A DNA stretch of 64,000 nucleotides from an uncultured Gammaproteobacteria bacterium (GTDB lineage Bacteria; Patescibacteriota; Microgenomatia; UBA8517). The notes beneath the pieces are model-generated. The model saw only the letters and a list, made by a program, of their open reading frames with translations. It was not told where the DNA came from and searched no databases. The first letter of the stretch is position 1; every line of letters starts with the position of its first letter. The position numbers were made by a program, and so were the translations under genes. The DNA lies in assembly GCA_964617045.1 (NCBI GenBank), contig CAZTVZ010000001.1, positions 136,763 through 200,762 of the forward strand, read 5' to 3'. Positions 10,607 through 32,743 of the stretch are shown here, in pieces.

Positions 10607-10817
10607 CAGATTGACTCCTATTGCTACAATGTAATTACCCTGATCGAAGGGAGCCGAGATAATCTTTCCTGATCAATAACTAATTTAGGGAAGGCGGAGT
10701 CTTTTAAGCCCTTTGGACTTAAAGGCAGCTTACCCACCTGGATTTTCCAGGAAAAATTAGTCCGGTTCTCCGAGACAGGGCTGACCTCGTACCCCTCCAA
10801 TTTGCGCGTATATTTGG

Positions 10818-13120: not shown

Positions 13121-13294
13121 ATGGCAAAAAAAGGAGCTCGAGAAATAGTCGCTTTGATTTGTTCCGTTTGTAAAAGTCAAAATTACATTACAGACAGGAA
13201 CAAGGTTAATATGGAAGGAAAACTGCAAGTAAACAAATACTGCAAAAAATGCAGAAAATCCACTTCCCACAAAGAAACGTCCAAGCTTAAGTAA
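13121..13294 (+). CDS. rpmG: 50S ribosomal protein L33 (zinc-ribbon type), 57 aa. Not in the ORF track because it is under 60 aa.
   Basis: Manual translation: MAKKGAREIVALICSVCKSQNYITDRNKVNMEGKLQVNKYCKKCRKSTSHKETSKLK, with CxxC...CxxC. The tRNA-Thr-rpmG-tRNA-Trp-secE-nusG neighbourhood is a widely conserved arrangement. Confidence 0.8.
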   Translation: MAKKGAREIVALICSVCKSQNYITDRNKVNMEGKLQVNKYCKKCRKSTSHKETSKLK

Positions 13295-13338: not shown

Positions 13339-13409
13339 AGGGGCGTCGTTCAACGGCAGGACTACGGTCTCCAAAACCGTCAATAGGAGTTCGATTCTCT
13401 TCGCCCCTG
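13339..13409 (+). tRNA. tRNA-Trp (anticodon CCA), compact 71 nt
   Basis: Acceptor aggggcg/cgcccct. Anticodon stem acggt/accgt, loop ctccaaa. T-loop ttcgatt. Its 3' end is overlapped by the recombinase stop codon at 13380. Confidence 0.7.
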
Positions 13410-15014
13410 CAGAGTGAGATTTTGAGAGTATAAATGCATCAATTGAGCCATATAATCGGTCTTTTCTTCGGGTTCGAACCTAGAGATAATTTTATCCGTC
13501 TCAACTTTAGCAGTTTTAGCAGCCAAAAACGGTTTTGGTACGGAAATACGGACTATTTTGTTGAATAACTCAAAGTTCGAACCGATTGTCGCCAGTATCT
13601 CTCTTTTCTTTTGTAAGCTATCGGTGTGTCCAAAATGATACATCGCATAACATGCAAAATCGAAGGTTTTAGTGGATAGTTCTAGCCACTGATTTACTCT
13701 CTCACCTACATTCTTCTTTTGATCTTCAAGGCTTTTCTTCTCTGCTTTTAAGTCTTTCATTTGTCTTTCAAATTCCTCGTCTGAAAGTACTGAACCGTCT
13801 GAATTCATTGGCGAGATTTTAAGCTTAACTAAATTGTTTATCTTCTCGATACAATCACCATAAGCAGAATCAACGCTTTTGTTTACTACTGTCTGATCTT
13901 TGGCCTCTTTATCGTGTAATTCATTCAGATACTTAATGGCCCAATCTTTGAATGACTCTGGAATCTCAATCTGGGATAGCAAATAGTCTGCTTGTCTCTC
14001 AAATTCACCCACCTCAATTGACTTTTGAGTACAATGCACATTTAATCTTTTCGTACAATGATAATAGATGTATCTTGAACCATATCTATTTATTTTCTCT
14101 TCAGCAGTAACCATTCCCCCACATTCTCCACAACGAACCATACCTGTAAAAGCAAACTCTCTGGTCTTAGGTCTTTGCTTCCCTTTCCTTCCTAAAAGAG
14201 CTTGGACCTTGTCGTATTCATCACGAGTTATCATCTTTTGATGTTTACCAACATACCATTTACCACTATATTCATATTCCCCGTAATAAAATGGATTTGT
14301 AAATATCTTGTATAAAGTGTTTTTGCCTATCTCATTTCCACCAAGTCTTTTATGTTTTGTAGTTCTATAACCCCATTCTTTATTCATTATGTCCATGATT
14401 TTTAAGACGGAATAATTACCAGTCAACATTAAGTCCCATGCTTTCCTGATAAGAGGAAACTTCACAGGATCAACACCTATTGTTCTTCTACCTCTCTCTT
14501 CAGTCTTGTCATTGTAATAACCTTCTGGAACACAACCAGGCCTCCAACCATTGTTTAGTTTCGTTTGTAAGCCTCTTTTAACATTCTTGGAAAGATCCCT
14601 CAAAAACTGATTAGCCTGCCCAAATTCGATATTTAGAAGAAGTACATTATCTTGTGATTGGTATAGTCTCTGAGGCGTCACAATCACTTTTAAGAGCTCT
14701 TTCTGAAGCAACCAGCTTAATGTACCAGAGTCGACTGGGTTTCTTGATCCACGGCTCAAATCCCAAATAATTAAGCCTTGAATAGCCCCTTCTTGAACAC
14801 GTTCAACTTCTTGATTAAAGACTGGTCTTCCTGGCTGTTTTGCAGACATTGATTCTTCTGCTATTTTTTCCACTTTGAGATGATTATCCATCGCTAACTT
14901 AACCAAGACCTCTTTTTGAGACTCAAGTGAAGCCACTTGATGATCATTATCATCACTACTACGTCTAAGGTAGATATCGTATTTTAATTGTAATAATTCT
15001 TCTGGTATGTACAT
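13380..15014 (-). CDS. Large serine recombinase (integrase of the putative inserted element)
   Basis: N-terminal resolvase catalytic domain (YLRRSSDDNDHQVASLESQ, with the serine nucleophile). Recombinase domain and a zinc ribbon (RCGECGG). C-terminal coiled coil. 544 aa. Confidence 0.85.
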   Translation of the reverse strand: MYIPEELLQLKYDIYLRRSSDDNDHQVASLESQKEVLVKLAMDNHLKVEKIAEESMSAKQPGRPVFNQEVERVQEGAIQGLIIWDLSRGSRNPVDSGTLSWLLQKELLKVIVTPQRLYQSQDNVLLLNIEFGQANQFLRDLSKNVKRGLQTKLNNGWRPGCVPEGYYNDKTEERGRRTIGVDPVKFPLIRKAWDLMLTGNYSVLKIMDIMNKEWGYRTTKHKRLGGNEIGKNTLYKIFTNPFYYGEYEYSGKWYVGKHQKMITRDEYDKVQALLGRKGKQRPKTREFAFTGMVRCGECGGMVTAEEKINRYGSRYIYYHCTKRLNVHCTQKSIEVGEFERQADYLLSQIEIPESFKDWAIKYLNELHDKEAKDQTVVNKSVDSAYGDCIEKINNLVKLKISPMNSDGSVLSDEEFERQMKDLKAEKKSLEDQKKNVGERVNQWLELSTKTFDFACYAMYHFGHTDSLQKKREILATIGSNFELFNKIVRISVPKPFLAAKTAKVETDKIISRFEPEEKTDYMAQLMHLYSQNLTLQGRRESNSY

Positions 15015-15131
15015 AACTTAAATGGCCGCTCTGGTGTACTCAACTCGGATTGCTCCAAATTGCCCAAAGCGGCCATTAAAAAAGCAATCCTAACGAGCTG
15101 AGTACAATATAATTATGTGCTCAGTTTGTGC

Positions 15132-16061
15132 CTAAGTCAAGCCTACATATTCCAAACATCTATAAAATATTTCGTTGTCCCAATTCCCAAAATAATGGTT
15201 TAGGCGAAGGTTGTTTTTATCACGCTCAATACTTGTGAGCCATCTATTAATAACTTCTCTCATCACTCTATAGATATACTCCAAAGACCAGCCTTGATCC
15301 CTTAAAATTTGCACCTGCATAATAAAACCCAGGTAACATCTGTTAAGTTGTTCTTGCTTATACAAAATATGTTCCTCACCAAGTAAGGCTTCATATTTAA
15401 GCAAGTAATAAAGAAGGGATTTTCTTGCTAATCTTATTTCGTTTTTCTTGATATTATGTTTTGTTAACAAATCCTTATCTAGTAAGAAAGAAACACTAGC
15501 TTTGTTTATCATGCTACGGAATACCACTTCGTTTCGGGTTTTCGATAACGGTACGGGATTCAGATTTTCAGAGTTTTCCTTATAAGTACTACTTTTCTGG
15601 TCGTCCAGATAATTATTAGATTTAATATCACTATTTAATATATTATGTGACTGATCCTTCATGACCCCCATGAATGGATTTTCATTACTTTTTAAGTTTG
15701 CTTTTAAACCTTGATTTATGATATTTCCGATAACAGGCGAAATCTTTCTTACAGTCCCATAGCGAGATTTTCCTTCTTTGATTTCAGACTTCTTATACCT
15801 TGTAACATTAATGTATATTAGTTTTTTACTTTTGAGCTTTCTTAAAATGTATTGAACCCCACGAACACTTTTTACTCCAGCAACTTGGGTTAAGGTTTCG
15901 TTTTTTATAAAGCAATACCCATCTTTTTTAGATAGTCCAACAATTACTGCCAAAACATCTCTTTCTGATGCTTTGAGACCGACAACAGCATTTACAATAT
16001 TTGGAATAAATATAAATGGCTCCTCATTGATCGATTCTGATTCTGTCTTTTCACTTTTCAT
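15132..16061 (-). CDS. Hypothetical protein with an N-terminal winged-helix DNA-binding region (replication-initiator-like)
   Basis: LKASERDVLAVIVGLSKKDGYCFIKNETLTQVAGVKSVRGVQYILRKLKSKKLI looks like a wHTH. No other motif recognised. Confidence 0.35.
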   Translation of the reverse strand: MKSEKTESESINEEPFIFIPNIVNAVVGLKASERDVLAVIVGLSKKDGYCFIKNETLTQVAGVKSVRGVQYILRKLKSKKLIYINVTRYKKSEIKEGKSRYGTVRKISPVIGNIINQGLKANLKSNENPFMGVMKDQSHNILNSDIKSNNYLDDQKSSTYKENSENLNPVPLSKTRNEVVFRSMINKASVSFLLDKDLLTKHNIKKNEIRLARKSLLYYLLKYEALLGEEHILYKQEQLNRCYLGFIMQVQILRDQGWSLEYIYRVMREVINRWLTSIERDKNNLRLNHYFGNWDNEIFYRCLEYVGLT

Positions 16062-16260
16062 TTTTGTATTTGTTCAATGCTTCTACAGGTATTGGTTTGT
16101 AAATAATGTCAAAAAGTATCAAAAGTTTGATGCCTTGCTCTTTTGCCTCCTCAGATGGAATTTCCATACCAAACTCGCTTTTATAAATTCGCTGGTACTC
16201 TTCTACTGCTTCGTTGGATATAGACTGAGTGTTTTGCATATTAGTCTTCCAAAAAAGCAT
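16051..16260 (-). CDS. Small hypothetical protein (element cargo)
   Basis: ORF only. Co-directional and tightly packed with its neighbours. Confidence 0.3.
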   Translation of the reverse strand: MLFWKTNMQNTQSISNEAVEEYQRIYKSEFGMEIPSEEAKEQGIKLLILFDIIYKPIPVEALNKYKNEK

Positions 16261-16525
16261 TCAAAGCCCAATAAAAAGATTCTTTGTCTGCATAGTTCCC
16301 GTCGTTATGAAATTCAGAATATTTTCCAAAATTATCAAGAAGTTTGCCGTAGTTAACTCTAAGATAAACGAAACTATCATTTTTCTCGATTTCTTTCCAA
16401 TTTATCGTGCGTATTTTTTGAGAAAAACTTCGTCTGGAGTGAGTTAAGCACTTACTTATTGTTTTACCATCTTTAATTATTTTGTAAGAAAAACTGAGCT
16501 TGGAAGTTTGATTGATAATATTCAT
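16241..16525 (-). CDS. Small hypothetical protein (element cargo)
   Basis: ORF only. Confidence 0.3.
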   Translation of the reverse strand: MNIINQTSKLSFSYKIIKDGKTISKCLTHSRRSFSQKIRTINWKEIEKNDSFVYLRVNYGKLLDNFGKYSEFHNDGNYADKESFYWALNAFLED

Positions 16526-16546
16526 ATTTATAGTTGTTCTTAAGAG

Positions 16547-16783
16547 CTAAGGCTCTTCGTAAATCCTGGCTTTTAAAGCTTTTAAGTTGTCAAAGTACTG
16601 TCGGGGTTCAACGAGAAGTTCCCTCTTCCAATATTTATCAACAGATTCTTGAAGTTTCTTACTATCTTCAAAAACAAACAGAACTTTTTTATTCCCATTT
16701 GTTTTATCCAAATTAACTGGAAACCATAAAGAAAGAGTCGCCGAGAGATCTAATGAATACGTAGAGAAAATATTTATCTTCAT
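16547..16783 (-). CDS. Small hypothetical protein (element cargo)
   Basis: ORF only. Confidence 0.3.
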   Translation of the reverse strand: MKINIFSTYSLDLSATLSLWFPVNLDKTNGNKKVLFVFEDSKKLQESVDKYWKRELLVEPRQYFDNLKALKARIYEEP

Positions 16784-16877
16784 ATACGTACATACAGAAC
16801 TTACACCAACAAGTTGTCAATACAGCAAAATCGAAGCTGAAACTATGTAAAAACGGTTGATTAACGGAGTAAATATG

Positions 16878-17588
16878 TTACTCCACCATTGAAACGGGTA
16901 TCTTGAGTGATATCGAATACGTATTGTTATTCTTATTAAACTCTCCAACTTCGATGTAATCAACATCATGCTTAATTTTTTTAACCAAAGCACTTTTTGT
17001 ATTTTTCAACCAGTTATCATCGACGCCTATTCTAGGATAATTGTTAGTTACATAACGAGTTATAGACTCTTGCGGGACGTTTGCTTTGAGCCAATCCCCG
17101 GATCGCTCTATATTACCTCGGAGGAAATCAACTAATGCAGACATAAACACAAACGAGTCCGTATAGCTTTTCTTGTCTTGCGGTTTAAAATCGATGATTA
17201 GTTTGTCATCAGCAATTCGTCTTAACCAAAATCTCAATCCACTAAAGCCAAAACATTCACCAAGCTTGTATTGCTTAGGTTTTTCACTATCTACTTTAAT
17301 TTCCTTTGTATAATAGGAGATTTTTCTCTCAAGTTTATTTGCGTTTAATAGGCGAAACTCTGCCTTAATTCCATTCGTATCACTTCCAAAACGAAGAGAT
17401 CCATTGTTTTTGCCTGTAAACATTAATGCGATAATACATTCTCCTTCAAGCTCTCGTAAAATATTATATTCGTTAGGAGAAACACCACCATAATCTATCC
17501 ATTCAAACTCTTTCTCGAAATAGGCATTAGTTTTTATCTTTTGAAGCACTCCCAAATATTCTTCACAGATAGCCCTATCAAGTTTCAT
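16878..17588 (-). CDS. Hypothetical protein (236 aa) transcribed downstream of the XRE regulator
   Basis: ORF only. No recognisable motif. It is directly downstream of the XRE gene on the same strand. Confidence 0.4.
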   Translation of the reverse strand: MKLDRAICEEYLGVLQKIKTNAYFEKEFEWIDYGGVSPNEYNILRELEGECIIALMFTGKNNGSLRFGSDTNGIKAEFRLLNANKLERKISYYTKEIKVDSEKPKQYKLGECFGFSGLRFWLRRIADDKLIIDFKPQDKKSYTDSFVFMSALVDFLRGNIERSGDWLKANVPQESITRYVTNNYPRIGVDDNWLKNTKSALVKKIKHDVDYIEVGEFNKNNNTYSISLKIPVSMVE

Positions 17589-17621
17589 ATTTATTTTAAT
17601 TAAGACTATTATCTTACGAAG

Positions 17622-17840
17622 CTAATATGGAATCAAATCTTTTACCTTAACTTTCAATACTCTTGCTACCTTCTGAAGAGTCTTTAAGCTCATTCTTCTA
17701 TTACCTGTCTCAACTAAACCTATATGGGTTGTACTAACCCCAATGTCTTCAGCCAGTTGCTCTTGGGTTAATTCTGCCTGCCTTCTAAATCTTTTTATTC
17801 TTTTACCTATTCCAGAATCTTTTTTAGTTACCTTATCCAT
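17622..17840 (-). CDS. XRE-family helix-turn-helix transcriptional regulator (Cro/CI-like)
   Basis: LTQEQLAEDIGVSTTHIGLVETGNRRMSLKTLQKVARVL is a canonical HTH_3 pattern. 72 aa. It sits at a divergent junction, as phage repressors do. Confidence 0.8.
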   Translation of the reverse strand: MDKVTKKDSGIGKRIKRFRRQAELTQEQLAEDIGVSTTHIGLVETGNRRMSLKTLQKVARVLKVKVKDLIPY

Positions 17841-17951
17841 ACATTTTAAGTTAGCAGAGAGTGTGTTAAATATTTATTACGTAAAAGGAAAGAAAATGAG
17901 GCTAAAACTATTGCTTTTTTATTAACTACGAGTTATGTTTATTGTATAAAT

Positions 17952-18158
17952 ATGGCACCCAAAGTAGCTTTAATTATTTTAGTCGCAATAATCATCCTGT
18001 TACTCCAAATTCTTGCGTTTGTAGGTTTTGCAAAATCCAATGACAATAAATTAACAAACACACAACAAGATAGGTGGAAAAAGTTTTCAGAATATATGGG
18101 TATAGCGTTTCTAATATTTGGAGCAATAGTGTTTGTTATAGCTGATTTTATTGATTGA
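17952..18158 (+). CDS. Small two-TM membrane protein
   Basis: Two hydrophobic helices. Overlaps the next ORF by 4 nt. Confidence 0.35.
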   Translation: MAPKVALIILVAIIILLLQILAFVGFAKSNDNKLTNTQQDRWKKFSEYMGIAFLIFGAIVFVIADFID

Positions 18159-18622
18159 AAATGAAAAAAATTATATTTGCATTTATATGTTTTTGTCTCG
18201 GTATACTCACCTATTTAGTAATTGAACATGTGTTTCCCAAAAACATAATTTCATCTCACATAAGTAAATTTGAGATTGATACAGATATTGTTTTAGAAGA
18301 TGTTAACAATTTTCGCTTAAAAAATGATTTGAACTCTCTCGTCAAAAATGAGAATTTATGCAATGTAGCAAAGGTAAGATTAAAAGAAATTCCTTTTAAT
18401 TGGAGTCATAATGGATTTTCGGCAGCTAGATTTTGTGCTGTAAACTGTATGATGGGTGAGAACCTAGCCAAGAATTATAAAACAGAACAGTCGATCATCG
18501 ACGCATGGGAAAATTCTCCAGAGCATAAGGCCGTTATGATTAACAAAGATCTTAAGTACGGTTGCGTCGCATCAGATGGAAAATATACAGTCTTGGAAGC
18601 ATCAACAATGATTCCATATTAA
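18155..18622 (+). CDS. Membrane-anchored protein with a possible CAP/SCP-like domain
   Basis: N-terminal TM segment. SPEHKAVMINKDLKYGC resembles the CAP-domain HxxxM...GC signature. Weak. Confidence 0.35.
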   Translation: MKMKKIIFAFICFCLGILTYLVIEHVFPKNIISSHISKFEIDTDIVLEDVNNFRLKNDLNSLVKNENLCNVAKVRLKEIPFNWSHNGFSAARFCAVNCMMGENLAKNYKTEQSIIDAWENSPEHKAVMINKDLKYGCVASDGKYTVLEASTMIPY

Positions 18623-18947
18623 TTGGTGTGTCTCTCTTCTCACATATCTACTTTTTTACTTGCAAACAATTCTACGATAGACAAAGTTTTGACTATTCGT
18701 GCCTAAAATAATCAATTTACATTCAGCAAATTAAGAAGAATTTGATTAGAGGCTAATTATTAACTTTCTCCCCGATCTTTTATATATCTAGCCTTAAATA
18801 ATCGTCCTCAGATTTTATAGTAATAAGTATTCGGTAATTATTGGTTTGTGTAATATCTCGGACACCATTTCGAAAAACTGCCGATTAATTTCTAAATAGC
18901 AATTATTAAATTTAGTCTGTTTATTTGTAAAAACTAGATTATAAAAA

Positions 18948-19769
18948 GTGCTAATATTATTATTAACTATGGATAAAACTACTCTAGAATCTAATGAAGA
19001 TAACAATAGAATCACCTTTTCACTAAAAGATATTGTTGTTGGTCAAGAAATTAACCCTAACAATATGACTCTCCCCTTACTAAATGAGTTTTTGCAACAA
19101 GTTACAACGTTTTTAAAAGGGGGGAAATATATAGACTTAGCCAAAGTTAAAAGTAGCATCAAGCATGGTTCCCTGGCAATTGAAGTAAACAACAACGACG
19201 GCCTATTGGATGAAGCCTTTAATGATTATCAAATTTTGTTAAAACATGGGTCGCTAAATGATATTGATTCCAATCGTGCAAGAATCGTTGAGTTATGGCA
19301 GTCGAATAGTAAAAATAATGAAAACAGGTCTTACGATTTGTATGTCGGTGATGATTCCACGAACAATCCTCATTTCATAATATCCAGGAAAACCAACTTT
19401 ATTATGATAAACAACAACTGGGTAGATGTTGATCTCTACCTTTACGGTAAGATATTTGATCTAGGGGGTAAAAACAAACCGAATGTTCATATCGAATTAG
19501 ATAATGGTAATACAATAAAAATTCAAACTAATACAAGCCTTTTATCAACCGATGAGGAAAACAGACTTTATAAAAAACAACTAGTAAGAATAAGGGCTAA
19601 ACGTAATATCGATACAAGACAATTGAAAGAAGAAAAACTTATGTCTTTTGTCTATTATAATCCTCAATTTGACGAAAAAAGCTTCGAAGAAATCTCAGAA
19701 AAAGCAACATTGGCTTGGAAATCGGTAAAAAATCCGTCTACTTGGGTTGATGAAATAAGAGGTAATTAA
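18948..19769 (+). CDS. Hypothetical protein, likely starting at MDKTT (18969)
   Basis: ORF only. N-rich and AT-rich codon usage. Immediately upstream of the PIN-like gene. Confidence 0.4.
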   Translation: MLILLLTMDKTTLESNEDNNRITFSLKDIVVGQEINPNNMTLPLLNEFLQQVTTFLKGGKYIDLAKVKSSIKHGSLAIEVNNNDGLLDEAFNDYQILLKHGSLNDIDSNRARIVELWQSNSKNNENRSYDLYVGDDSTNNPHFIISRKTNFIMINNNWVDVDLYLYGKIFDLGGKNKPNVHIELDNGNTIKIQTNTSLLSTDEENRLYKKQLVRIRAKRNIDTRQLKEEKLMSFVYYNPQFDEKSFEEISEKATLAWKSVKNPSTWVDEIRGN

Positions 19770-19777
19770 TACTAAAC

Positions 19778-20275
19778 ATGGATAAAGATAACAAGAAAAT
19801 GACTGTCTTAGTAGATACAAGTTTTCTAATAACTTTGTATGACAAAACGAGACCTAATAATCCTACTGCGTTTAAGTATTTAAATTATTTTTTAGATAAT
19901 TTAATAGACATGTATTTATCAACAATTGTTATTTCAGAATATCAACAAATGCAACCTATTGTCGATATTATAAATTCAGGTAATTACATACCCATATCTT
20001 ATAACTACGAGGACGCTATCAAAACGGCCGAAATTGCCTACAATATTTCAGGCGAAAAACGTGGATCACGGGCAGAATTCAAAGACGATCTGAAACTTAT
20101 GGGTCAGGCAGAATTTAACAATATTACATTCATTATCACAGATGATGAAACAACCTTAGCCAAATACTGTGAAAGATTATCTGGTGCCAAGATGTTTAAA
20201 CCAAAAATTATAATTATGAGTAAGGGATTTGATTCTAGTATTTTCAATGATGGCCAAGCCTCACTAATTGAATAA
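19778..20275 (+). CDS. PIN-domain-like putative nuclease
   Basis: VLVDTSFLI start, with conserved acidic positions (D in LVDTS, E in VISEYQ, DD in FIITDDET) spaced as in PIN domains. Confidence 0.4.
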   Translation: MDKDNKKMTVLVDTSFLITLYDKTRPNNPTAFKYLNYFLDNLIDMYLSTIVISEYQQMQPIVDIINSGNYIPISYNYEDAIKTAEIAYNISGEKRGSRAEFKDDLKLMGQAEFNNITFIITDDETTLAKYCERLSGAKMFKPKIIIMSKGFDSSIFNDGQASLIE

Positions 20276-20287
20276 AAGCACTTTAAG

Positions 20288-20911
20288 TTAATATGGTGGC
20301 ATTATTTGGAAGTTTATATTTTTACAACGCTTAATAAAATATAGTCGATAGTTTTTTCTATCTTCTCTCAATCTTTTTTTATATTCTTCACAAGCTTGTT
20401 TAAAATCTTCAATTAGTCGTGCATTTATAATAAGTATCTTGTAAAGATTGCCACTTTTAAGAAATTTTATTCCGCAGGATTCTCTTTCAAGAGCAATTTT
20501 GTAATCTGATTCATTTCCAGAACCAATTACTGAAAAAGTTAATTTTTTGCCATTTTTTATCTTATATGTCTTTATTAGATATTCATGAGTTAAACCTGAA
20601 CGAATAATGTTATAGATACCATTACCAGTCGCTCTTTTTATCTTTGCAATTTCTTTCTGATAACCATGATTAAATAGCTGGTTAATAACAAAATTGAATC
20701 TTTGAGTGGCAGAGCCACGAACATCTTTGTATCGATAAAAACTGCCTAGTATTTCAATATAGTTAAAAATACCCAATGCTACCAAAAAGTTCGCTTGTGC
20801 ATTAATACTAGACCTCTTTAGATCTCCATACATCCAGCCCTGAACTGTACTAAACCTAGGAAAATACCTTTGATAATCAACGTGGTTTTCCTGGAAGGTT
20901 TCCAAATTCAT
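20288..20911 (-). CDS. Hypothetical protein (207 aa)
   Basis: ORF only. Confidence 0.4.
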   Translation of the reverse strand: MNLETFQENHVDYQRYFPRFSTVQGWMYGDLKRSSINAQANFLVALGIFNYIEILGSFYRYKDVRGSATQRFNFVINQLFNHGYQKEIAKIKRATGNGIYNIIRSGLTHEYLIKTYKIKNGKKLTFSVIGSGNESDYKIALERESCGIKFLKSGNLYKILIINARLIEDFKQACEEYKKRLREDRKNYRLYFIKRCKNINFQIMPPY

Positions 20912-20988
20912 GTTTCAACAACAATATATTCTAGAAAGCTACAAAAGTAAATCTGGCTAGAGACAACTAGTGCTTTATCCCTCAGTCT

Positions 20989-21081
20989 GTTCCATTGTGG
21001 ATGTTAAGCATTTTTAAACACCCCTCCCCACCCACTAGGACGTGCAATGATTACACAAATTGAGGTTAATTATTGAAGCAC
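20989..21081. repeat. Repeat A copy 1 (93 nt). 71 nt are identical to 24203-24273 and a 9-mer matches 24181-24189.
   Basis: Direct comparison: tttttaaacacccctccccacccactaggacgtgcaatgattacacaaattgaggttaattattgaagcac is present identically at both sites. Confidence 0.85.
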
Positions 21082-21112
21082 AGATTACAAGACTGTTACG
21101 GTTTTTAATAAA

Positions 21113-21511
21113 CTAATTTAGTAACTTGTCGGCAAGGTCCCTGATTACTTCTCCTTTTTTTGTTATCTTTACTATCATCTCATCTGTACTTTTCTTACTT
21201 AATTTTTTACCTTTTTCTTTTCTCGTAACTAATTCCCATAATTTCTTATATTCTTGAATTTCATTTGAAAGAATTATACTGTGTTTCTTAAATCTAGATA
21301 TCAAATAATCCAACCTATCAAAGTCCTTGTCATATAAAGTTCGGTATTTCATAGATTTCTCAGCTCGCTTGGTAATATCGTGAGTTTTAATATTTAACTC
21401 CATTATTTCTTTATATTTAATCTCGTTTAATTTTTGCCTTCTAAAAAATGCCAACGGAAGGATCGCAAGAACAATAGAATTTATAATTGTGAGAGCTTGA
21501 AAAATGTCCAT
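21113..21511 (-). CDS. Small membrane-anchored coiled-coil protein carried on a ~509-bp insertion between repeats A and B
   Basis: N-terminal TM segment (IINSIVLAILPLAFF) followed by a K/E-rich helical region. The flanking 9-mers ttgaagcac (21073-21081) and ttgaagtac (21582-21590) resemble a target-site duplication. Confidence 0.45.
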   Translation of the reverse strand: MDIFQALTIINSIVLAILPLAFFRRQKLNEIKYKEIMELNIKTHDITKRAEKSMKYRTLYDKDFDRLDYLISRFKKHSIILSNEIQEYKKLWELVTRKEKGKKLSKKSTDEMIVKITKKGEVIRDLADKLLN

Positions 21512-21590
21512 TCACAGATATTATACTTCAAATCACTCAAAATGATGGATTGTCGGAATCTAAAACTCATACATTTAACTTTTGAAGTAC

Positions 21591-21643
21591 TGGAATATGG
21601 CAAGACTCTTGAAGCTGTCTGTAATAAGTTTTAACATCACTTA
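21591..21643. repeat. Repeat B copy 1 (53 nt, about 81% identical to 24274-24326)
   Basis: tggaatatggcaagactcttgaagctgtctgtaataagttttaacatcactta aligns with tgggatataacaaggctcttgaagattgaggtaataagttctaacatcactta. Confidence 0.75.
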
Positions 21644-23488
21644 GATATCCCATCGGGCTATCTCTTCGGCCAGTCTTTTAAACTCACTGATAGCATTACG
21701 ACTCATGAAAGCATTGAGTTCAGAAATACTACTTGGGTAATAATTTAATTGGAGCTTGTCGATAGATAACTTTTCCCCTTCCTTCAATGAACTATTTATG
21801 TAATCATCAATCGATCCAATTCCCAATAACCACACATTCTGCTTTCTAAAAATAGTTCTAATTTTACCAATCTGAAAGTCTTTAATAACTTTTAACAAAC
21901 CAGATTTCCGTTCATAGACATACTTTTCAATCAATTTCTTATAACGCATTTGGTATAGTTTTTTGTCATCCTCGGTTAACGTACCTTGATTAAAAATTTT
22001 ATTAACTAATTTGAAAAAAGTGGTCTTAACTTCACTGTTAAGTGAAAATGTCCTTATTCCACTTTCTTTATCGTCAAGTCTCACCATTTTTCTCTTAAGG
22101 GTATTTACAGATCTAACAAATTCTTTACCGAAAAAATCAAAATCTGTTTCTTGTAAAAAGAAGTCTAAATCTACTACAAAAAAATAGTCTGTTCCTAGGT
22201 CTTTAGATAAGTCATACAGACTATGCATATATGCTTTTCCATAGCCCGCAACTATCTCTATATTTCTTTGATCCAAACTCATTTTGTTTAAGTGCTTCGA
22301 TAGAACTCCCAACGTCCTTTCAAAAAATATTTTATCTGTCGTTGATTCGACAGCTATTATTTTTCTACAAAAAAATATTTCGGGAAATGTAAGATATTTT
22401 TGTAATAATCTTTTATTCTGTAGTTTGACATGTCTCGTAAAAGTGTCTGATGTTTTTAGCAATTTTATACAATCGACTTTCGTCCACCTGATAAAAAATG
22501 TGGAGTGTGTTGCAATCAAGACTTGAACACCACGATGTGATAACTTCTTAATTTTAGAAATTACAAATGGCAATTGGGAATAATTTAAGTGCAACTCAGG
22601 TTCGTCAATTATCACAATCGAGGGCCCGACTTCTTCTATTGTTTCAAAAAAAACATTAAGGTTGTTTAGTTGTTGTTCACCAGAGCTTGCCTTTTGAATA
22701 TCTTTCCCTTTCCCATCCAAAATCATACGTGACATTTCTGGATTTCCATCATATACATATCTATAGTCGTCACTTTTTGACAGGTTGTTAATTATTGTTG
22801 TAGAATCTTCGACAACCTTGTTAAAATGCCTACTCATCGCTTTTTTGTTTTCCAAGGTTTTGAATAATATGCTTTTAAAATCAGCGTAGTTGTAAGCTAA
22901 TGACTTAATTCTTAATTTTTGTAATATTTTTCTCGCATCTAAATCTCGTGATTGATAAACATAATATATATCGTTATCAACCCTAACCAAAACTCGTTCG
23001 TTATGACTACTTCCAGACCCGATAAGTACTAATAAAAATTTTACCTTTGAATTCTTCATGTCATGCAGTTTAAGAAGACCCTCCCTTACTATTGGTTTGT
23101 CTCTGGTGTCGTCAACCAAAATCTTCTTAATGTCGACCATGCAATTTTCGTTATTTTTTGTCAAAGCGCACACCATAGTATCAGACCATACATCTTTTAA
23201 AAAACTGCTATTCAACTCAACTTCTGATGTCTCGAAAACTATATAGGGAACTTTACTGTGGTCTTCGGAGTAATATGAGCTGAACAAATTAGTCACAGAG
23301 AAAAAGTTCTTATTTCCAAGAAAATTGCCATCCAAAAAATAGGCCATTATTTGCAATAAAGTACTTTTCCCTACAGCATTCGGCCCAACGAAGATATTTA
23401 GATTTGAAGTAAGATCTACTTCGAAATCTTTAAAGCACCTTATACCATCAACAAAGATTCTTGATATGTAAGTGGAATTCAAATTCAT
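21641..23488 (-). CDS. OLD-family nuclease: ABC-type ATPase with a C-terminal TOPRIM domain (a fused PARIS AriA/AriB-like architecture is also possible)
   Basis: Walker A GPNAVGKST. Signature-like SSGEQQ. Walker B IVIIDEPELHL. H-loop LIATHS. TOPRIM glutamate in IIAVESTTDKIFFERTL and the DxD in FFVVDLDF. 615 aa. Confidence 0.75.
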   Translation of the reverse strand: MNLNSTYISRIFVDGIRCFKDFEVDLTSNLNIFVGPNAVGKSTLLQIMAYFLDGNFLGNKNFFSVTNLFSSYYSEDHSKVPYIVFETSEVELNSSFLKDVWSDTMVCALTKNNENCMVDIKKILVDDTRDKPIVREGLLKLHDMKNSKVKFLLVLIGSGSSHNERVLVRVDNDIYYVYQSRDLDARKILQKLRIKSLAYNYADFKSILFKTLENKKAMSRHFNKVVEDSTTIINNLSKSDDYRYVYDGNPEMSRMILDGKGKDIQKASSGEQQLNNLNVFFETIEEVGPSIVIIDEPELHLNYSQLPFVISKIKKLSHRGVQVLIATHSTFFIRWTKVDCIKLLKTSDTFTRHVKLQNKRLLQKYLTFPEIFFCRKIIAVESTTDKIFFERTLGVLSKHLNKMSLDQRNIEIVAGYGKAYMHSLYDLSKDLGTDYFFVVDLDFFLQETDFDFFGKEFVRSVNTLKRKMVRLDDKESGIRTFSLNSEVKTTFFKLVNKIFNQGTLTEDDKKLYQMRYKKLIEKYVYERKSGLLKVIKDFQIGKIRTIFRKQNVWLLGIGSIDDYINSSLKEGEKLSIDKLQLNYYPSSISELNAFMSRNAISEFKRLAEEIARWDI

Positions 23489-23537
23489 AAAACAGGCTTA
23501 TTTTAGTTCACCCCAGATTAAGAAGCAATCAAGGAGC

Positions 23538-24107
23538 CTATTTTGATTTTACTATGATAAAGGAAAGTCCTCCAACATATTTGTCTTTAATTCTCTGATA
23601 CTCAGTATTGCCACCCATTACTTCTCCGTCATCTTCAAATCTGGGATTTTCCACCAATGCCATGAAATGTCCACGATTCTCTTCATTCTTTCTTCTTAAC
23701 ATCGTAACAGCAGTGGAAATTCCAGGCACAGGTCTAACCCACCCATCTTCTGAATCAATAATTGGAACCTGATCTTCTACTGGTATTCCCCCTCTAATGT
23801 GTTCTATTGATTGGTCAGTATGGTTAATAATGTGATCTACTTTAAGTCCTAATTCTGGTTCAAATCTTTTGACTTCGCTTATAAACTCACCCACCTTAAC
23901 TCCCTTACCAAGCTTTAAACCTTGTTTGATTTTCGTCTCAATAGATTTTGGTAAAAGTCTATCGGGATAGAGATAATTGAAACAACTGATCAGAGAATAA
24001 TAGAAACACCCATCACCCAAATCATGAGTTTCTTTTACAAAATTACTTAATCTATCTCTTTGCATTACTCCAATAGCTCTTTCAAGCAATGGTCTATCCA
24101 TGGACAT
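23538..24107 (-). CDS. Hypothetical 189-aa protein, first gene of the OLD operon. Possibly a papain-fold/OTU-like cysteine peptidase.
   Basis: LGDGCFYYSLISC resembles the OTU Cys-box and RGHFMALVE the His-box. Weak motif-level evidence only. Confidence 0.35.
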   Translation of the reverse strand: MSMDRPLLERAIGVMQRDRLSNFVKETHDLGDGCFYYSLISCFNYLYPDRLLPKSIETKIKQGLKLGKGVKVGEFISEVKRFEPELGLKVDHIINHTDQSIEHIRGGIPVEDQVPIIDSEDGWVRPVPGISTAVTMLRRKNEENRGHFMALVENPRFEDDGEVMGGNTEYQRIKDKYVGGLSFIIVKSK

Positions 24108-24180
24108 ATTTTAACTCGCACCATTATGAGAGGCAATCTGCTCTACAACTAGGCAAGTCTAGTACTTTACTCCGCGTTTG

Positions 24181-24273
24181 GTTCCATTGGGAGTCCCAGG
24201 CGTTTTTAAACACCCCTCCCCACCCACTAGGACGTGCAATGATTACACAAATTGAGGTTAATTATTGAAGCAC
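24181..24273. repeat. Repeat A copy 2
   Basis: See repeat A copy 1. Here A is directly contiguous with B. Confidence 0.85.
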
Positions 24274-24326
24274 TGGGATATAACAAGGCTCTTGAAGATT
24301 GAGGTAATAAGTTCTAACATCACTTA
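24274..24326. repeat. Repeat B copy 2
   Basis: See repeat B copy 1. Confidence 0.75.
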
Positions 24327-24353
24327 CGACTTTCTGCAAAAAAGCTTTAGGGT

Positions 24354-24824
24354 GTGTATTATAGAATAATGGAACCAACAAGAATTCCTACTATCGAAAA
24401 AGTTAAATTGTTCCTTGAGGAATATGGATGGCATTTTAGGGAAATTGTTTCTGAAAATAAAACCTCTTTAATTTCACCTTATACTTTGGAGGGAGAAAAT
24501 AAAGGAGTTTTGATTAGTTTTAAAATCGAAGGCGAATTTGTTATGGTATCGACTGTAGACTTTCTTAAAAATATCCCAGATAGCTTTACAATAAACCTTC
24601 TTTCATTAAACGATAAGTTGAAACTAATAAAAATATTTGTCACCAGCCAAAATGGAGATAATACCGTAAATGCAGATGTTGGTTTTGAACTTTGGGATAA
24701 TTCTTGGAATAAAGAAGGATTTTTCTCATTTATGGACATGCTTTGTTTAGGAATTGAAAAAACAATCGAAATGGTTTCAACTGAAAACATTCCCCATCAA
24801 ACAAATTTTGTTACATTCTCCTAA
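24354..24824 (+). CDS. Hypothetical protein, possibly YbjN-like (putative sensory-transduction regulator fold)
   Basis: The size (~156 aa) and an alternating beta-rich pattern are reminiscent of YbjN/T3SS-chaperone-like proteins. Weak. Confidence 0.3.
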   Translation: MYYRIMEPTRIPTIEKVKLFLEEYGWHFREIVSENKTSLISPYTLEGENKGVLISFKIEGEFVMVSTVDFLKNIPDSFTINLLSLNDKLKLIKIFVTSQNGDNTVNADVGFELWDNSWNKEGFFSFMDMLCLGIEKTIEMVSTENIPHQTNFVTFS

Positions 24825-24949
24825 CTTAATAAGTTCTTAACAAAGTTAGCTAACCCCTGCTAAAACCACACTTGGGAGAGGGTTGGTTGGGTACTTCAAC
24901 ACATACTAAACTGTTGACTTTATTAATTGATAATTGAGATACTAATCTG

Positions 24950-25741
24950 ATGAGTATTGATAATCAGAATCAATCTTCTGGACTACCAATAAATCAAAGT
25001 TTTCCCAATAGTAACGGTGACAATTCTACGCAACCAAATGCACCTCAACCTATGCCTTTCCCTCAACAAACAGACTCCTTTTCGGTGTCTCCACAAGTGC
25101 AACCACAAGACCCAACCATTCAAAAAGATATATCAAAATCAAAAATTAATAAAATAATTATTTTATTAATAATCTTATGTTGTGTTGGTCTCTTTGCATA
25201 CTTTGGATTTTTTCACAAGTCCACCCGCGTCTCCACGCCTCAACCGACAGATACCGAGGATGTTAACAACAATACCAATATTGCTCCCCCTGTAGATAGT
25301 TCTTGTAAAATTTTTTGGGTTGATCCTATTCTTCCGGAAGAAGGAAATATCGAGCCACTTTTTCTACGTACAACAAATAGTGAAATAGCAACCGGATTTG
25401 AGGCGATCATTAGAAGAAGTGTTCAAAACAATGTATTAACCATTGATGTGGTAACCAATCTACTTCCAGAAACACACTCCCCATACTATCTATGGGCCGT
25501 TGCAACTGGTCAAAACGATTCAATCTGTATCCAAAACAATATTGGCCAATTGGAAAAAATTGGCGAAGAAGGTCCTTGGGGAGCAGGACCATTTACAATA
25601 CCTGTTGAAAATGTGAATGACGCACAAATTTTCTTGATTACTACTAACGGAAAAGGTTCAAACGCTACAGATAAAATAGAATCTTTGTCTGATCCAAACA
25701 TAGTTCTTTGGGGTGCCTACAAAGACAACCAACAGCCCTAA
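24950..25741 (+). CDS. Membrane-anchored protein with a low-complexity Q/P/N-rich N-terminus, one TM segment and an extracytoplasmic domain
   Basis: Hydrophobic segment KIIILLIILCCVGLFAYFGFF. PT-rich linker. Confidence 0.4.
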   Translation: MSIDNQNQSSGLPINQSFPNSNGDNSTQPNAPQPMPFPQQTDSFSVSPQVQPQDPTIQKDISKSKINKIIILLIILCCVGLFAYFGFFHKSTRVSTPQPTDTEDVNNNTNIAPPVDSSCKIFWVDPILPEEGNIEPLFLRTTNSEIATGFEAIIRRSVQNNVLTIDVVTNLLPETHSPYYLWAVATGQNDSICIQNNIGQLEKIGEEGPWGAGPFTIPVENVNDAQIFLITTNGKGSNATDKIESLSDPNIVLWGAYKDNQQP

Positions 25742-25794
25742 TTTCAATAGAAATTCCCGATATTGTTTACAGGTTTCTACAGAAAATTGAAAAA

Positions 25795-26799
25795 TTACCT
25801 GTTTCTTTTCATTCGTCTCTCTTCGAAATACTCGTTTCGCATTAATTGATTGTGGATCTTCAACAAAGCGTGATACTCTATCTGCCTTACTCTTTCTCTG
25901 GTCAAGTTAAACATCTTGGCCGTTTCTTCCAATGTGTGTTTTTCGTGATCCAAATATCCAACTCTGTACAAAAATATTGTTGCATTTCTGGGATTTTTGT
26001 AAAAAATATCGTTAACCATTTTGACAATGTAATCGGCATATTCTTTTTCTTCCATGATAACTTCCTGGTTTTTCTTGCTATCCGGAATAAAGTCGGCAAA
26101 CACACTTTCTTTGTCCCCGACCGGTTCATCAAGATCGAGTACCATATTCTTGGCGTATTTAAGTTTTTTAACGTATTTGAGAGGCTTTCCCAACTCTTGC
26201 GCAATTTCTTCGTTTGTCGGCTCCGTTCCGTTAATAAGTGTCTGTCTTACAGTCATCTTGTTCATTTTTATCAAATTATCATGAACATTGGCCGGATATC
26301 GGATTATTCTCGAGTAGTTGGCCATTGCTCTTCTTATACTTTGTTCTATCCACCATGTGGCGTGAGTGGTAAATCGATTGCCCAAGGAATAATCGTATTT
26401 TCTTGCCGCAATTACCATTCCATACATTCCTTCCTGAATTAAGTCTTCAAAGGGCAAACCTTTTCCTACATATTTTTTGGCAATATTAACCACCAAACGC
26501 TGGTGGGCATCCATAAGTTGACTCATTGCCTCTCTTGCATCTTCATTGAAATCTTCTTTTTTGGCACCAATGATATCCCCTTTTCTTTCAAACAACATTC
26601 CGTTTTTAATCCTTTTTCCCAACTCAATTTCCTCTTCAAGGGTAAGATATGTGCCGTTTTCGGGAGCGCGGGCTTCCGCAAGCATCAACTTGATAGGATC
26701 TGTGGGTACATTTTCATATCTGTCTTTACCGTTTTTTCTGGACGGTAAATCGAAATCGGCAGGGATTCTGTTTTCTGGGAGTCTTTCGGTCATATGCAA
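25795..26799 (-). CDS. RNA polymerase sigma-70 family factor (regions 1.2, 2, 3, 4). Possibly the primary sigma factor.
   Basis: Region 2.4: TTHATWWIEQSIRRAMANYSRIIRYP. Region 3: EEIAQELGKPLKYVKKL. Region 4.2 HTH: TLEETAKMFNLTRERVRQIEYHALLKI. Confidence 0.85.
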   Translation of the reverse strand: MHMTERLPENRIPADFDLPSRKNGKDRYENVPTDPIKLMLAEARAPENGTYLTLEEEIELGKRIKNGMLFERKGDIIGAKKEDFNEDAREAMSQLMDAHQRLVVNIAKKYVGKGLPFEDLIQEGMYGMVIAARKYDYSLGNRFTTHATWWIEQSIRRAMANYSRIIRYPANVHDNLIKMNKMTVRQTLINGTEPTNEEIAQELGKPLKYVKKLKYAKNMVLDLDEPVGDKESVFADFIPDSKKNQEVIMEEKEYADYIVKMVNDIFYKNPRNATIFLYRVGYLDHEKHTLEETAKMFNLTRERVRQIEYHALLKIHNQLMRNEYFEERRMKRNR

Positions 26800-26822
26800 A
26801 AATAACTTGGTGATTTTATCAC

Positions 26823-27416
26823 CTACTTATCCTTGCGCACAATCAGATTTCTCAGAGGTTCTTCGAAGCATCCTTTTTGAAAGCTATTATTGATAACAAT
26901 TTTATCTGCAATATCCAACAATTGATCGGCATTTCTTTCGACAAATACTCCGTTAATGTTTAGTGAATGCATATCATGTCTTGAACACACAATTTCGACC
27001 CAGTATATTTTTCTCCCGGATAGTTCAGCTGTTGCTCTTAACATATTTCTGTACTCCAGTTTCGAAAAAGTTGCATCTAAGATTACGGAAGAATCATTTG
27101 CTAAAATCTTCGTTGTTTCTTTAAACATTTCTTCATACGCAGCTTTGGAATGCCACTCCTGGTATTGAGAGGAAGCAAATAACCTTCTTCGATAGATATC
27201 ACTACTCAAAATGGGGACGTTGATGTTCTTTGCTAATTCTTCGGCAAAAGTAGTTTTTCCGACCCCTGCTTTCCCGATAACCGCAATTATCGAAGGATAA
27301 GAGATATCGATGCTGGAGGGTCTTTCCCTGGATTTGATACTGAATTTTTCGATACTCATCTTGAGATTACTTAAAATATCGCATAATAAATAATATTCAA
27401 TAGACGCAATTGACAT
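26823..27416 (-). CDS. P-loop NTPase/kinase (AAA_33-like)
   Basis: Walker A GKAGVGKTT. Walker B-like VILDAT. Confidence 0.55.
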   Translation of the reverse strand: MSIASIEYYLLCDILSNLKMSIEKFSIKSRERPSSIDISYPSIIAVIGKAGVGKTTFAEELAKNINVPILSSDIYRRRLFASSQYQEWHSKAAYEEMFKETTKILANDSSVILDATFSKLEYRNMLRATAELSGRKIYWVEIVCSRHDMHSLNINGVFVERNADQLLDIADKIVINNSFQKGCFEEPLRNLIVRKDK

Positions 27417-27444
27417 TCTTAGGCTTCATGCCTCATATTTAGTT

Positions 27445-28089
27445 GTGACCAAAAAAGGATCAGTGTTGGCGATAATTTTGATAATAGTTGCAATCTCGCT
27501 TGCGGGTGTAGGAGGATTTTTTGCAAAAGATGCGATTAAGCAAATTGCAGAGGCAGACAAAAAAACCGGAGGTATGGAAAACTTAAACGAAAAAGAGATT
27601 TTTTCCAGCTCAACCCCCACCCCTACTCCGATTAAAACCACAAAGACATATGTAAACGACAATCCAAAATTTTCAGTTGAAATTAAAAACGATTTAATCG
27701 AAAAGAAAAGCACCGACAGAAACGGATACACAAGTATCCTATTCGAAAGTCCAGATTACAAAATGGATGAACCGGAGAACGGCTACCCAACAGTAAAATC
27801 CGGATATACAGTTAGTGTCTACGCAGAAAGTGCAAATTCGAATCTTCAGGGAGAATTTGACAACAAACCAATTTATAAAGAGGCGGGTCAAAATATTAAA
27901 AATATAAAAGTCGATAACAGGGACGCTTTACAGTTTGATTTTGGTTACGAAGGAGTAATTTCAGTTACAACCATGGTTGTTAAAGACGAACTTCTTTACA
28001 CCATAGATATGAGATATTCATACGAAGAAGGAAAAGATAAATATTTTGGGGAATACACAAAAATAATTGAATCTTTTAAGTTCCTTTAA
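27445..28089 (+). CDS. Membrane-anchored or secreted hypothetical protein
   Basis: N-terminal TM/signal segment, TPTPTP linker, then a beta-rich domain. Confidence 0.4.
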   Translation: MTKKGSVLAIILIIVAISLAGVGGFFAKDAIKQIAEADKKTGGMENLNEKEIFSSSTPTPTPIKTTKTYVNDNPKFSVEIKNDLIEKKSTDRNGYTSILFESPDYKMDEPENGYPTVKSGYTVSVYAESANSNLQGEFDNKPIYKEAGQNIKNIKVDNRDALQFDFGYEGVISVTTMVVKDELLYTIDMRYSYEEGKDKYFGEYTKIIESFKFL

Positions 28090-29718: not shown

Positions 29719-29808
29719 ACCATGAACATCTTAGCACAAAATTTGCGCACAAAAAAAGTCTTAATTATTTCCTTGACAGTTGTTCTCTCGTTGTTCTAAT
29801 ATGCGGCA

Positions 29809-31622: not shown

Positions 31623-31623
31623 C

Positions 31624-32661: not shown

Positions 32662-32743
32662 AAATCAATACCAAAAACTCAAAAATCTGATAAAATATTT
32701 ATCTAGCAAGAGTATTTTTACTCGAAAGGAGGCGATTTTTTGG

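Follow-up and report, generated by a model that had tools for sequence, protein, structure and literature searches.

The 64,000-nt stretch of contig CAZTVZ010000001.1 analyzed here (referred to as the window) harbours, at the 3' end of a tRNA-Trp gene, a mobile element of 10,927 bp (window positions 13412-24338). With a probability of roughly 85 %, this is a plasmid-like integrative element whose host is a Patescibacteria (Woesebacteria-like) bacterium and whose own large serine recombinase (LSR) inserted it right after the discriminator base of tRNA-Trp. An LSR-mediated insertion at the 3' end of this tRNA had been proposed in a first-pass annotation of the window and is corroborated by (i) empty sites in conspecific contigs, (ii) a shift in base composition across the element and (iii) recoverable attachment (att) sites. 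The element is real, precisely delimited and probably active. Its unusual traits are the predicted targeting of tRNA 3' ends via the T-loop, the predicted location of attP within the recombinase gene, entailing an exchange of the C-terminal tail of the enzyme (tail swap), and a host from the candidate phyla radiation (CPR) in which relatives of the element occur as free mini-circles.

Extent of the element and empty integration sites

Contigs with an empty integration site were found via the CapA-like protein encoded in the left flank, followed by retrieval of contigs encoding identical copies of it. In one of them (L015, ENA ERZ724080), window positions 25092 to 24334 (99.9 % identity) are directly continued by positions 13411 to 4759 (98.5 % identity), the overlap of the two parts being exactly CTGCA. 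Since L015 joins position 24334 to 13411 with this overlap, the element is fixed as 13412-24338 and the tRNA gene is intact. The 5-bp core CTGCA is present on both sides of the element (13407-13411 and 24334-24338), and the corresponding L015 sequence (…TTCGCCCCTGCAAAAAAGCTTTAGGG…) equals the predicted attB. Three further contigs (L016, L019 and L020), which stem from Logan assemblies (three runs), connect window position 25777 with 13413 and are empty for 13414-25783, i.e., they lack the element as well as the adjacent block at 24339-25781, such that tRNA-Trp resides beside the sigma-70 gene. The presence/absence polymorphism is precise in these four independent assemblies, with flanks of 98.5-99.9 % identity, and the sequence of tRNA-Trp is identical in L015 and L019. 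The comparison with insertion-free relatives, which the first-pass annotation had recommended together with a composition plot, therefore yielded precise empty sites in all four contigs.

The composition plot agrees with these boundaries. The GC content amounts to 0.333 in the element as compared to 0.386 and 0.392 in the left and right host flank, respectively, and the tetranucleotide distance to the host background peaks at 15-25 kb, across the element. As anticipated for a serine recombinase, a long direct repeat is lacking, the shared core comprising 5 bp only. There is no tRNA-length repeat, and the 3' half of the tRNA has no second copy. A tRNA 3' fragment displaced to the far end, which is the usual signature of tRNA-associated islands, was not found within 3 mismatches, because the crossover falls after the last tRNA base. 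A generic repeat search for att sites retrieved the repeats A and B only (Table 1); these were rejected as att repeats, since they represent relics of the recombinase tail. The right boundary, previously narrowed to 24.3-25.8 kb, comprises two boundaries, with the end of the live element (24338) and that of an older relic block (25781) located at the two ends of this range. The size of the element had been overestimated at about 11.5 kb; it is 10,927 bp, starting after the tRNA.

Recombinase gene, attP and tail swap

The LSR displays the three expected domains (PF00239, E=1.2e-15; PF07508, E=9e-10; PF13408, E=1.3e-8) and a YLRRSSDD motif, with R37 and S39 being invariant in an alignment of 38 homologues. 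Long paired helices at 372-481 in the AlphaFold2 model of the homologue P0012 form the coiled coil. An exact look-up of the LSR returned no record; this very protein is present on one contig only in the database.

The overlap of the recombinase stop with the 3' end of tRNA-Trp, already noticed in the first-pass annotation, comprises the last 31 nt of the gene, which are antisense to the T-arm and the 3' strand of the acceptor. Accordingly, the chromosomal enzyme terminates in …SQNLTLQ-GRRESNSY, its last 9 residues being encoded antisense to the tRNA. Joining the right end of the element (…CTG) to its left end (CA…) yields an LSR reading frame of 559 aa that ends with KVVSDVRTYYLNLQEPCYIPVLQ and a stop codon. 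The counterpart in L001, an integrated relative, encodes the tail TVVNDVRTYYLELQEPCYIPALQ in the same frame, its stop occupying the same position. Because end-joining extends the LSR frame and the L001 tail is conserved in frame, attP is predicted to be located inside the LSR gene. Integration severs about 23 codons from the 3' end of the gene, leaving the catalytic and DNA-binding domains intact in the chromosomal copy. In the proposed mechanism, the zinc ribbon of the LSR would read the T-loop of the tRNA, with insertion occurring right after the discriminator base. Integration exchanges the LSR tail for tRNA-derived antisense residues and leaves the displaced tail at the attR end, from where excision would restore the full-length LSR gene.

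The same arrangement is found in related elements. In L001, L003, L004 and L006, the displaced tail is located at the far (attR) end of the element, oriented as expected and at a distance of 9-11 kb upstream from the LSR gene. Among 112 full-length homologues, about 17 possess the free-type tail, conserved as …DVRT[F/Y]Y…[I/V]P…, and at least 42 end with the T-loop-encoded [RW][DE]SN, while most others stop 2-3 residues past the junction; the tRNA-derived ends of integrated isoforms range from 1 to >60 aa. Pairwise comparison of free and integrated forms places the divergence at the same site: the free P0012 shares 83 % identity with P0007, located at tRNA-Gln, as far as …NP.LL, and the free P0031 shares 80 % with the integrated P0032 as far as …NPRLSR, beyond which the proteins diverge. 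The displaced tails of the window and of L001 are intact and in frame as opposed to the decayed relics described below, which suggests that both copies continue to pass through a free state.

Whether the tail swap carries regulatory meaning may be viewed in two ways. The chances are about even that it has none: attP would merely reside among the final ~25 codons, the two isoforms would not differ in activity, and a recombination directionality factor (RDF) would govern directionality, as in other serine integrases. The invariant GTTAGAAC, representing the V-R-T codons, is indeed found at the position expected for the zinc-ribbon motif, the tail is modelled with low confidence, and the C-termini of the integrated isoforms are arbitrary, being dictated by the respective tRNA. 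This view has to accommodate, however, the distal motif …[FY]x[IV]Px[FL], which is positioned 45-70 nt from the core and, hence, past the 25-bp half-site; it is conserved in frame despite variable spacing at the DNA level, suggesting selection on the peptide. One may speculate, although only tentatively, that the recombinase records its own integration state, in that the conserved tail of the free enzyme is needed for, or tunes, integration. The tail-less chromosomal enzyme would then differ in directionality, stability or activity.

Proposed recognition of the tRNA T-loop

In LSR sites, the motif bound by the zinc-ribbon domain is positioned 5 bp further inward in attB than in attP (PMC3783163). 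Such a 5-bp shift was examined on the P and B arms. The tetranucleotide GAAC is found at +20 in the P arm (within GTTAGAAC, i.e., the V-R-T codons) versus +15 in the B arm, where it is part of the T-loop (TCGAAC). These positions are common to the window, L001 and the tRNA-Gln-integrated L003; in L004, whose shared core is longer, GAAC is located at +17 (P) versus +12 (B). In the tRNA-Gln elements, the P arm reads TGGAT-GACGT-TAGAAC and the B arm TGGAT-TCGAAC. This LSR family accordingly appears to read the near-universal T-loop as attB motif through its zinc-ribbon domain, which would allow for its spread over different tRNA genes. For tRNA targeting by serine recombinases, this suggests a simple scheme, with the T-loop as attB motif and the same sequence plus a 5-bp spacer as attP arm, from which switching of the target between tRNA-Trp and tRNA-Gln would follow.

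In the tRNA-Gln sub-family (L003 and L008), the attP arm reads like the T-arm of the tRNA into which 5 bp have been inserted. The attP site may have evolved from a captured tRNA end.

Related elements, free circles and type of element

The LSR family comprises 3,427 matches, which, where named, belong to Patescibacteria, Daviesbacteria, Levybacteria and similar groups. The contexts of six relatives share the backbone order XRE - (DUF5659) - small open reading frame (ORF) - Rep or primase/helicase - LSR, and in all six a tRNA gene of the opposite strand contains the LSR stop (tRNA-Trp in L001 and L004; tRNA-Gln in L002, L003 and L007). Between the window and L001 (LSR 84 % identical), nucleotide homology is confined to the backbone and to 24219-24343, which matches the far end of L001. 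The latter homology stops at CTGCA-AAAAA, and at the left end this CTGCA is likewise found past the tRNA discriminator base. The junctions are built alike in independent ENA, Logan, JGI and NCBI assemblies.

Two relatives were retrieved as free circles. L008 (P0012, 11,142 bp) possesses identical 30-nt ends, corresponding to a circle of 11,112 bp, and L009 (P0031, 8,774 bp, k141 assembly) identical 141-nt ends, corresponding to a circle of 8,633 bp. Two contigs of other samples, L010 and L011, match L009 at 100 % as circular permutations and cross its ends. Both L008 and L009 contain an intact LSR gene with tail and no tRNA, their LSRs being 70 and 59 % identical, respectively, to that of the window. 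Relatives encode a primase zinc ribbon and an AAA_25/DnaB-like helicase and occur as circles; the free form of the window element would replicate through its Rep-like protein. The cargo is nearly wholly different between relatives, yet often defence-like.

Families of relaxases, type IV secretion systems and type IV coupling proteins were not detected among the element ORFs of the window or the free circles. The same applies to capsid, terminase, portal, Zot-like and lysis families (Pfam, PHROGs), although highly divergent proteins could escape such searches. In agreement with these profiles, the best label for the element, as predicted from its gene content, is integrative plasmid-like replicon. 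Its spread would have to proceed without an own capsid or conjugation apparatus, e.g., by natural transformation or hitch-hiking.

A temperate virus of a new, small, non-tailed type, with the ORFs of unassigned function encoding structural proteins and the circles representing the replicative form, is an improbable alternative. It could draw on the PHROG matches to integrase, replication initiator and repressor families, on the divergent junction at the XRE gene resembling an immunity region, and on the circular genomes of 8.6-11.1 kb with their block of small opposite-strand ORFs including DUF6804 and CAP-domain proteins. But no structural, packaging or lysis family is recognizable in the window element or the circles, leaving the earlier designation as prophage-like without support, and the nearly complete difference in cargo between relatives is unlike a conserved virion module. 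Moreover, identity of the LSR to proteins in plasmid or phage collections does not exceed 26 % (none >26 % in INPHARED), and its relative in IMG/VR is only 32 % identical. Finally, a genomic island that is fixed and dead, or a chimeric assembly, as might be suspected from the exact LSR being present on one contig, the purely metagenomic data and the decayed relics at the site, is highly improbable in view of the precise polymorphism in four independent assemblies with nearly identical flanks, the intact LSR and displaced tail ORF, the recurring junction architecture and the free circles of relatives.

Several points nevertheless count against an active integrative replicon with tail swap. All sequences used are metagenome assemblies. 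Exact attB and attP junction patterns gave zero matches each in JGI metagenomes, and neither a free circle nor, in these metagenomes, an attP junction of the window sub-lineage was found; present mobility of the window copy is hence deduced from the existence of an empty site and from its parts being intact. The assignment of the Rep-like protein is weak, its HTH_36 match being below threshold, and most cargo genes are devoid of recognizable function, such that unrecognized virion genes are possible. A candidate for an RDF, which serine integrases require for excision, was not recognized. Comparison of the P' and B' arms did not reveal a clear common motif, and, since neither P/P' nor B'/P' share a convincing one, the central crossover dinucleotide could not be placed within CTGCA. 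With respect to the tail, the DVRT codons overlap the DNA-binding arm GTTAGAAC, and its conservation may in part reflect constraint at the DNA level. The AlphaFold model of the free-form LSR has an overall predicted local distance difference test score (pLDDT) of 75.8, which drops to <50 in the tail, rendering the model uninformative with respect to docking of the tail.

Relation to known integration systems

Elements with serine integrases (φC31, Bxb1, A118/LI, SPβ and some integrative and conjugative elements) share with the present one the order of resolvase, recombinase and zinc-ribbon domains with coiled coil, the short att sites and the 5-bp shift (PMC3783163). Distinct from them are the tRNA 3'-end target with a T-loop attB motif, attP in the own ORF, the Patescibacteria host, the LSR of at most 26 % identity and the small replicon size (~9-11 kb) in the absence of recognizable virion or transfer genes. 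As all defining features that are testable in the sequence were found, the element is a member of the serine-integrase mobile elements.

A comparable layout is known from the suicidal tyrosine integrases of SSV type (SSV1, pT26-2), for which PMC7253208 describes an att site within the integrase ORF, a split gene and tRNA targets. The likeness extends to the integrase parts at opposite element ends and to small plasmids or viruses as carriers. There, however, the enzymes are tyrosine recombinases of archaeal elements and integration leaves two inactive pseudogenes, whereas the present enzyme is a bacterial serine recombinase exchanging about 23 codons. The relation is accordingly regarded as one of analogy, not membership. 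As the apparent serine-recombinase counterpart of this archaeal layout, the element gives rise to the idea that the integration state is written in the C-terminus of the enzyme.

In mycobacteriophages (BPs, Brujita and cluster P), attP is located inside a gene and integration alters the C-terminus of the encoded protein, which thereby signals to the element whether it is integrated (PMC3694055, PMC4557955). The gene concerned in this integration-dependent immunity is that of the repressor and the integrase is of the tyrosine type, whereas here the affected gene is that of the recombinase itself and an effect is putative. Removal of a degradation tag from the mycobacteriophage repressor upon integration has reportedly been demonstrated experimentally. 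The present element belongs neither to these systems nor to those of SSV type, given the differences in recombinase class, host domain and affected gene.

Tycheposons use tyrosine integrases in 910 of 937 cases (10.1101/2020.12.28.424599), and Islander-type genomic islands integrate site-specifically at tRNA genes (PMC4383910). Common to these and the present element are cargo and replication genes carried to tRNA genes, resulting in variable islands beside the tRNA. In contrast to the present case, in which the tRNA is not cut internally and a tRNA-length repeat is lacking, those elements regenerate the tRNA from a long repeat that they carry themselves.

In the literature, no description was found of a serine integrase whose own gene harbours attP or of tRNA-targeting LSR elements in the CPR, which does not prove that none exists. 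Mobile elements of Patescibacteria/CPR are, to our knowledge, very poorly known, and genetic tools for the CPR nonexistent. The locus could serve as a blueprint for a CPR integration vector and as a source of new orthogonal serine integrases, since the predicted attP as well as the natural attB, attL and attR are delimited at single-nucleotide resolution and relatives occur naturally as free circles. If sensing of the integration state held true, it would constitute a self-contained, RDF-independent serine-integrase switch; combined with recognition of the T-loop, it would enable tiny episomes to colonize any tRNA gene of the CPR and to build defence islands there.

Tail relics and proposed growth of the island

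Besides the functional element end, the locus contains further copies of the recombinase tail. Repeat-flanked cassettes had been described previously for this region. The repeats are real (A, 20967-21081 and 24159-24273; B, 21575-21643 and 24258-24326), but their nature is a different one: B are copies of the recombinase tail and A of the region downstream of it. The OLD operon resides between the internal tail relic (B1) and the functional end of the element. A third, decayed tail copy and a degenerate core terminate the block at 24339-25781, presumably the remnant of an older member of the element family. Together with the internal relic at 21.6 kb, the relic block (24.3-25.8 kb) was probably left as a scar by earlier elements that used this site. 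The cargo may have accreted by repeated use of the site or by co-resident elements recombining with one another, with deletion thereafter, and the OLD operon was probably gained through such earlier same-site elements. The nested tail relics thereby illustrate how a variable tRNA-linked island (OLD and other cargo) can grow by repeated use of a single site.

The 132-aa ORF is flanked by a direct repeat of ~35 nt (21066-21100 and 21575-21612, ~78 % identical), which corresponds to the 3' half of the recombinase tail, suggesting insertion of this ORF via recombination between tail copies.

Within the A repeats, 71 nt are exactly identical (21011-21081 and 24203-24273), as opposed to only 81 % similarity of the adjacent B repeats. 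The identical stretch holds a G-rich tract, GGGTGGGGAGGGGTG, on the minus strand and is located just upstream of the 207-aa and 189-aa ORFs. It could represent a promoter, a 5' leader or a recent gene conversion. The two ORFs downstream of the A repeats were considered as paralogues and found to be unrelated. A structured RNA was rejected for repeat A (fold z-scores of -1.2 to +0.7, no match in Rfam), and an integron-like cassette array for the entire repeat region, as IntI is lacking, the repeats are tail copies plus downstream region, and a significant fold is absent.

A scan of genome contigs with the 151-aa ORF of the relic block retrieved only a gene of 66 % identity in Candidatus Woesebacteria GW2011_GWB1_33_22 (L014, 2566-3009), the only homologue in the genome collection. 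It resides in a tRNA-free, non-syntenic context, which is uninformative for the empty site and consistent with the gene being mobile cargo.

Backbone and cargo genes

The features of the element and its immediate surroundings are compiled in Table 1. The leftward backbone operon starts at a divergent junction (17841-17951) next to the HTH_3 gene, as recognized in the first-pass annotation for an XRE repressor. Its assignment of a replication-like winged helix-turn-helix protein is retained in part: the PHROG match points to an initiator, while the HTH_36 score remains below the cut-off. The C-terminal half of this protein is 55 % identical to the product of the same-position gene in L001.

Table 1 Features of the integrated element, the adjoining relic block and the immediate host flanks (window coordinates)
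Feature	Position	Strand	Evidence or remark
rpmG (ribosomal protein L33), host left flank	13121-13294	+	57-aa ORF; adjoins tRNA-Trp also in L001 and empty-site contigs
tRNA-Trp (CCA), integration target, intact	13339-13410	+	ARAGORN; Rfam tRNA 55.2 bits; discriminator G at 13409
attL core CTGCA	13407-13411		Common to attR and attB, contains crossover; 5-nt overlap of L015 junction
Integrated element	13412-24338		Precisely missing from L015; GC 0.333 versus 0.39
LSR, integrated isoform, 544 aa	13380-15014	-	Pfam Resolvase, Recombinase and Zn_ribbon_recom; PHROG 95 integrase, E=2.5e-61
Replication-initiator-like winged helix-turn-helix protein, 309 aa	15132-16061	-	HTH_36 22.9 bits versus cut-off 25; PHROG 270, E=6e-7
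Conserved backbone protein, 69 aa	16051-16260	-	tblastn matches in all related loci, L001-L012
Backbone protein, 94 aa	16241-16525	-	64 % identical to L001 counterpart
DUF5659 backbone protein	16547-16783	-	Pfam E=3.8e-10; kept in L001, L003, L007 and L009-L012
Protein of 236 aa	16878-17588	-	ORF; no family match
XRE-type HTH regulator, first gene of leftward backbone operon	17622-17840	-	HTH_3 E=6.9e-13; position filled in relatives too
Rightward cargo block, opening with 68-aa ORF	17952-20275	+	ORFs
CAP-domain protein	18155-18622	+	CAP E=1.1e-8; CAP-domain gene also in free circle L008
273-aa ORF	18948-19769	+	Weak Pox_A22 match only
165-aa ORF	19778-20275	+	PIN E=0.015, sub-threshold
207-aa cargo ORF	20288-20911	-	No matches
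Repeat A1, family D1	20967-21081		86 %; copy of region just past free-form recombinase stop, includes decayed tail 3' end
132-aa ORF, between repeats A1 and B1	21113-21511	-	ORF
Repeat B1, internal tail relic (SDVKTYYRQLQESCHIPVLQ…), without last ~12 nt of attP arm	21575-21643	-	Repeat comparison
OLD-family ATPase-TOPRIM nuclease, 615 aa, defence-type cargo	21641-23488	-	Pfam AAA_15/AAA_21/OLD-like_TOPRIM; Walker A motif
189-aa ORF, upstream of OLD, same operon	23538-24107	-	No match in Pfam, PHROGs, PADLOC or PDB
Repeat A2	24159-24273		Region downstream of tail stop codon
Displaced recombinase 3' end, encodes KVVSDVRTYYLNLQEPCYIPVLQ plus stop, doubles as attP P arm (GTTAGAAC)	24262-24333	-	Joining to 13410 yields 559-aa ORF
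attR core CTGCA	24334-24338		Sequence comparison
Predicted attP (free-form junction)			…TTACGACTTTCTG CA GAGTGAGATT…; also given as …CATCACTTACGACTTTCTGCAGAGTGAGATTTTGAGAG…
attB			…TTCGCCCCTG CA AAAAAGC…
Older relic block, 1,443 bp	24339-25781		Present in L015, missing from L016, L019 and L020; GC 0.349
151-aa ORF, relic block	24369-24824	+	ORF
263-aa ORF, relic block	24950-25741	+	ORF
Third tail copy, decayed, stop-KPVNNIGNFY-stop	25745-25776	-	Relic block
Degenerate core CTACA	25777-25781		Relic-block end
Sigma-70 gene, first right host gene	25795-26799	-	Pfam; adjoins tRNA-Trp directly when doubly empty (L019 order and junction)

The OLD gene of the first-pass annotation was confirmed, its product combining ATPase and TOPRIM domains. 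It matches GajA (2e-23) and Old (1.4e-22) in PADLOC, with AriA, PtuA and OLD as relatives in the PDB. A Gabija system (GajA/GajB) was rejected, the neighbouring 189-aa and 132-aa ORFs being devoid of a helicase domain; the protein is better described as an OLD-family nuclease with a small partner. Across the cargo, PADLOC scored OLD alone. The view of a mostly defence-type cargo consequently holds only in part, the window element having OLD as its sole recognizable defence gene, although SIR2-like and restriction-modification genes are carried by relatives. The PIN-like gene pair proposed earlier dissolves into one ORF with a sub-threshold PIN match and a neighbour (18948-19769) with a different, likewise weak match.

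The free circle L008 encodes (3-3934) a SIR2_2-domain protein followed by a protein of 1,046 aa, which may constitute a defence pair on a CPR episome. In the tRNA-Gln-integrated L002, DpnI-like, Eco57I/N6_Mtase/TaqI_C (type IIG restriction-modification) and SNF2-helicase/PLD nuclease genes are located at 854-7787; this element is >10 kb, with its far end outside the 10 kb fetched.

Host flanks

The first-pass annotation regarded the element as splitting a contiguous rpmG-tRNA-Trp-secE-nusG arrangement. This does not apply, since in the doubly empty state the genes for sigma-70, an AAA_33 kinase-like and a C39-peptidase-like protein already come after tRNA-Trp. In L019, ~3.3 kb of host-like genes from sigma-70 onward are contiguous with tRNA-Trp. 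The genes secE and nusG are located at 34830 and 35054, respectively, and the GC content over 25782-35000 amounts to 0.383. Even in the empty state, ~9 kb (25782-34829) part tRNA-Trp from secE-nusG, including genes for sigma-70, the AAA_33 kinase-like protein, the C39-like peptidase, a Ddl-like ATP-grasp protein, a GDP-mannose dehydratase and RNase HII.

Further upstream, a sub-threshold match to 6S RNA (10634-10785, plus strand; Rfam 36.2 bits versus a gathering score of 46.4, E=4e-4) is located just upstream of a tRNA-Thr/tRNA-Tyr pair. A second zone of low GC content (0.337) and deviant tetranucleotide usage, at 53000-64000, encodes a surface-glycan cluster (Wzy_C, DegT aminotransferase, GT2 glycosyltransferase, methyltransferase and Bac_transf sugar transferase) and is more suggestive of a variable polysaccharide locus than of a mobile element.

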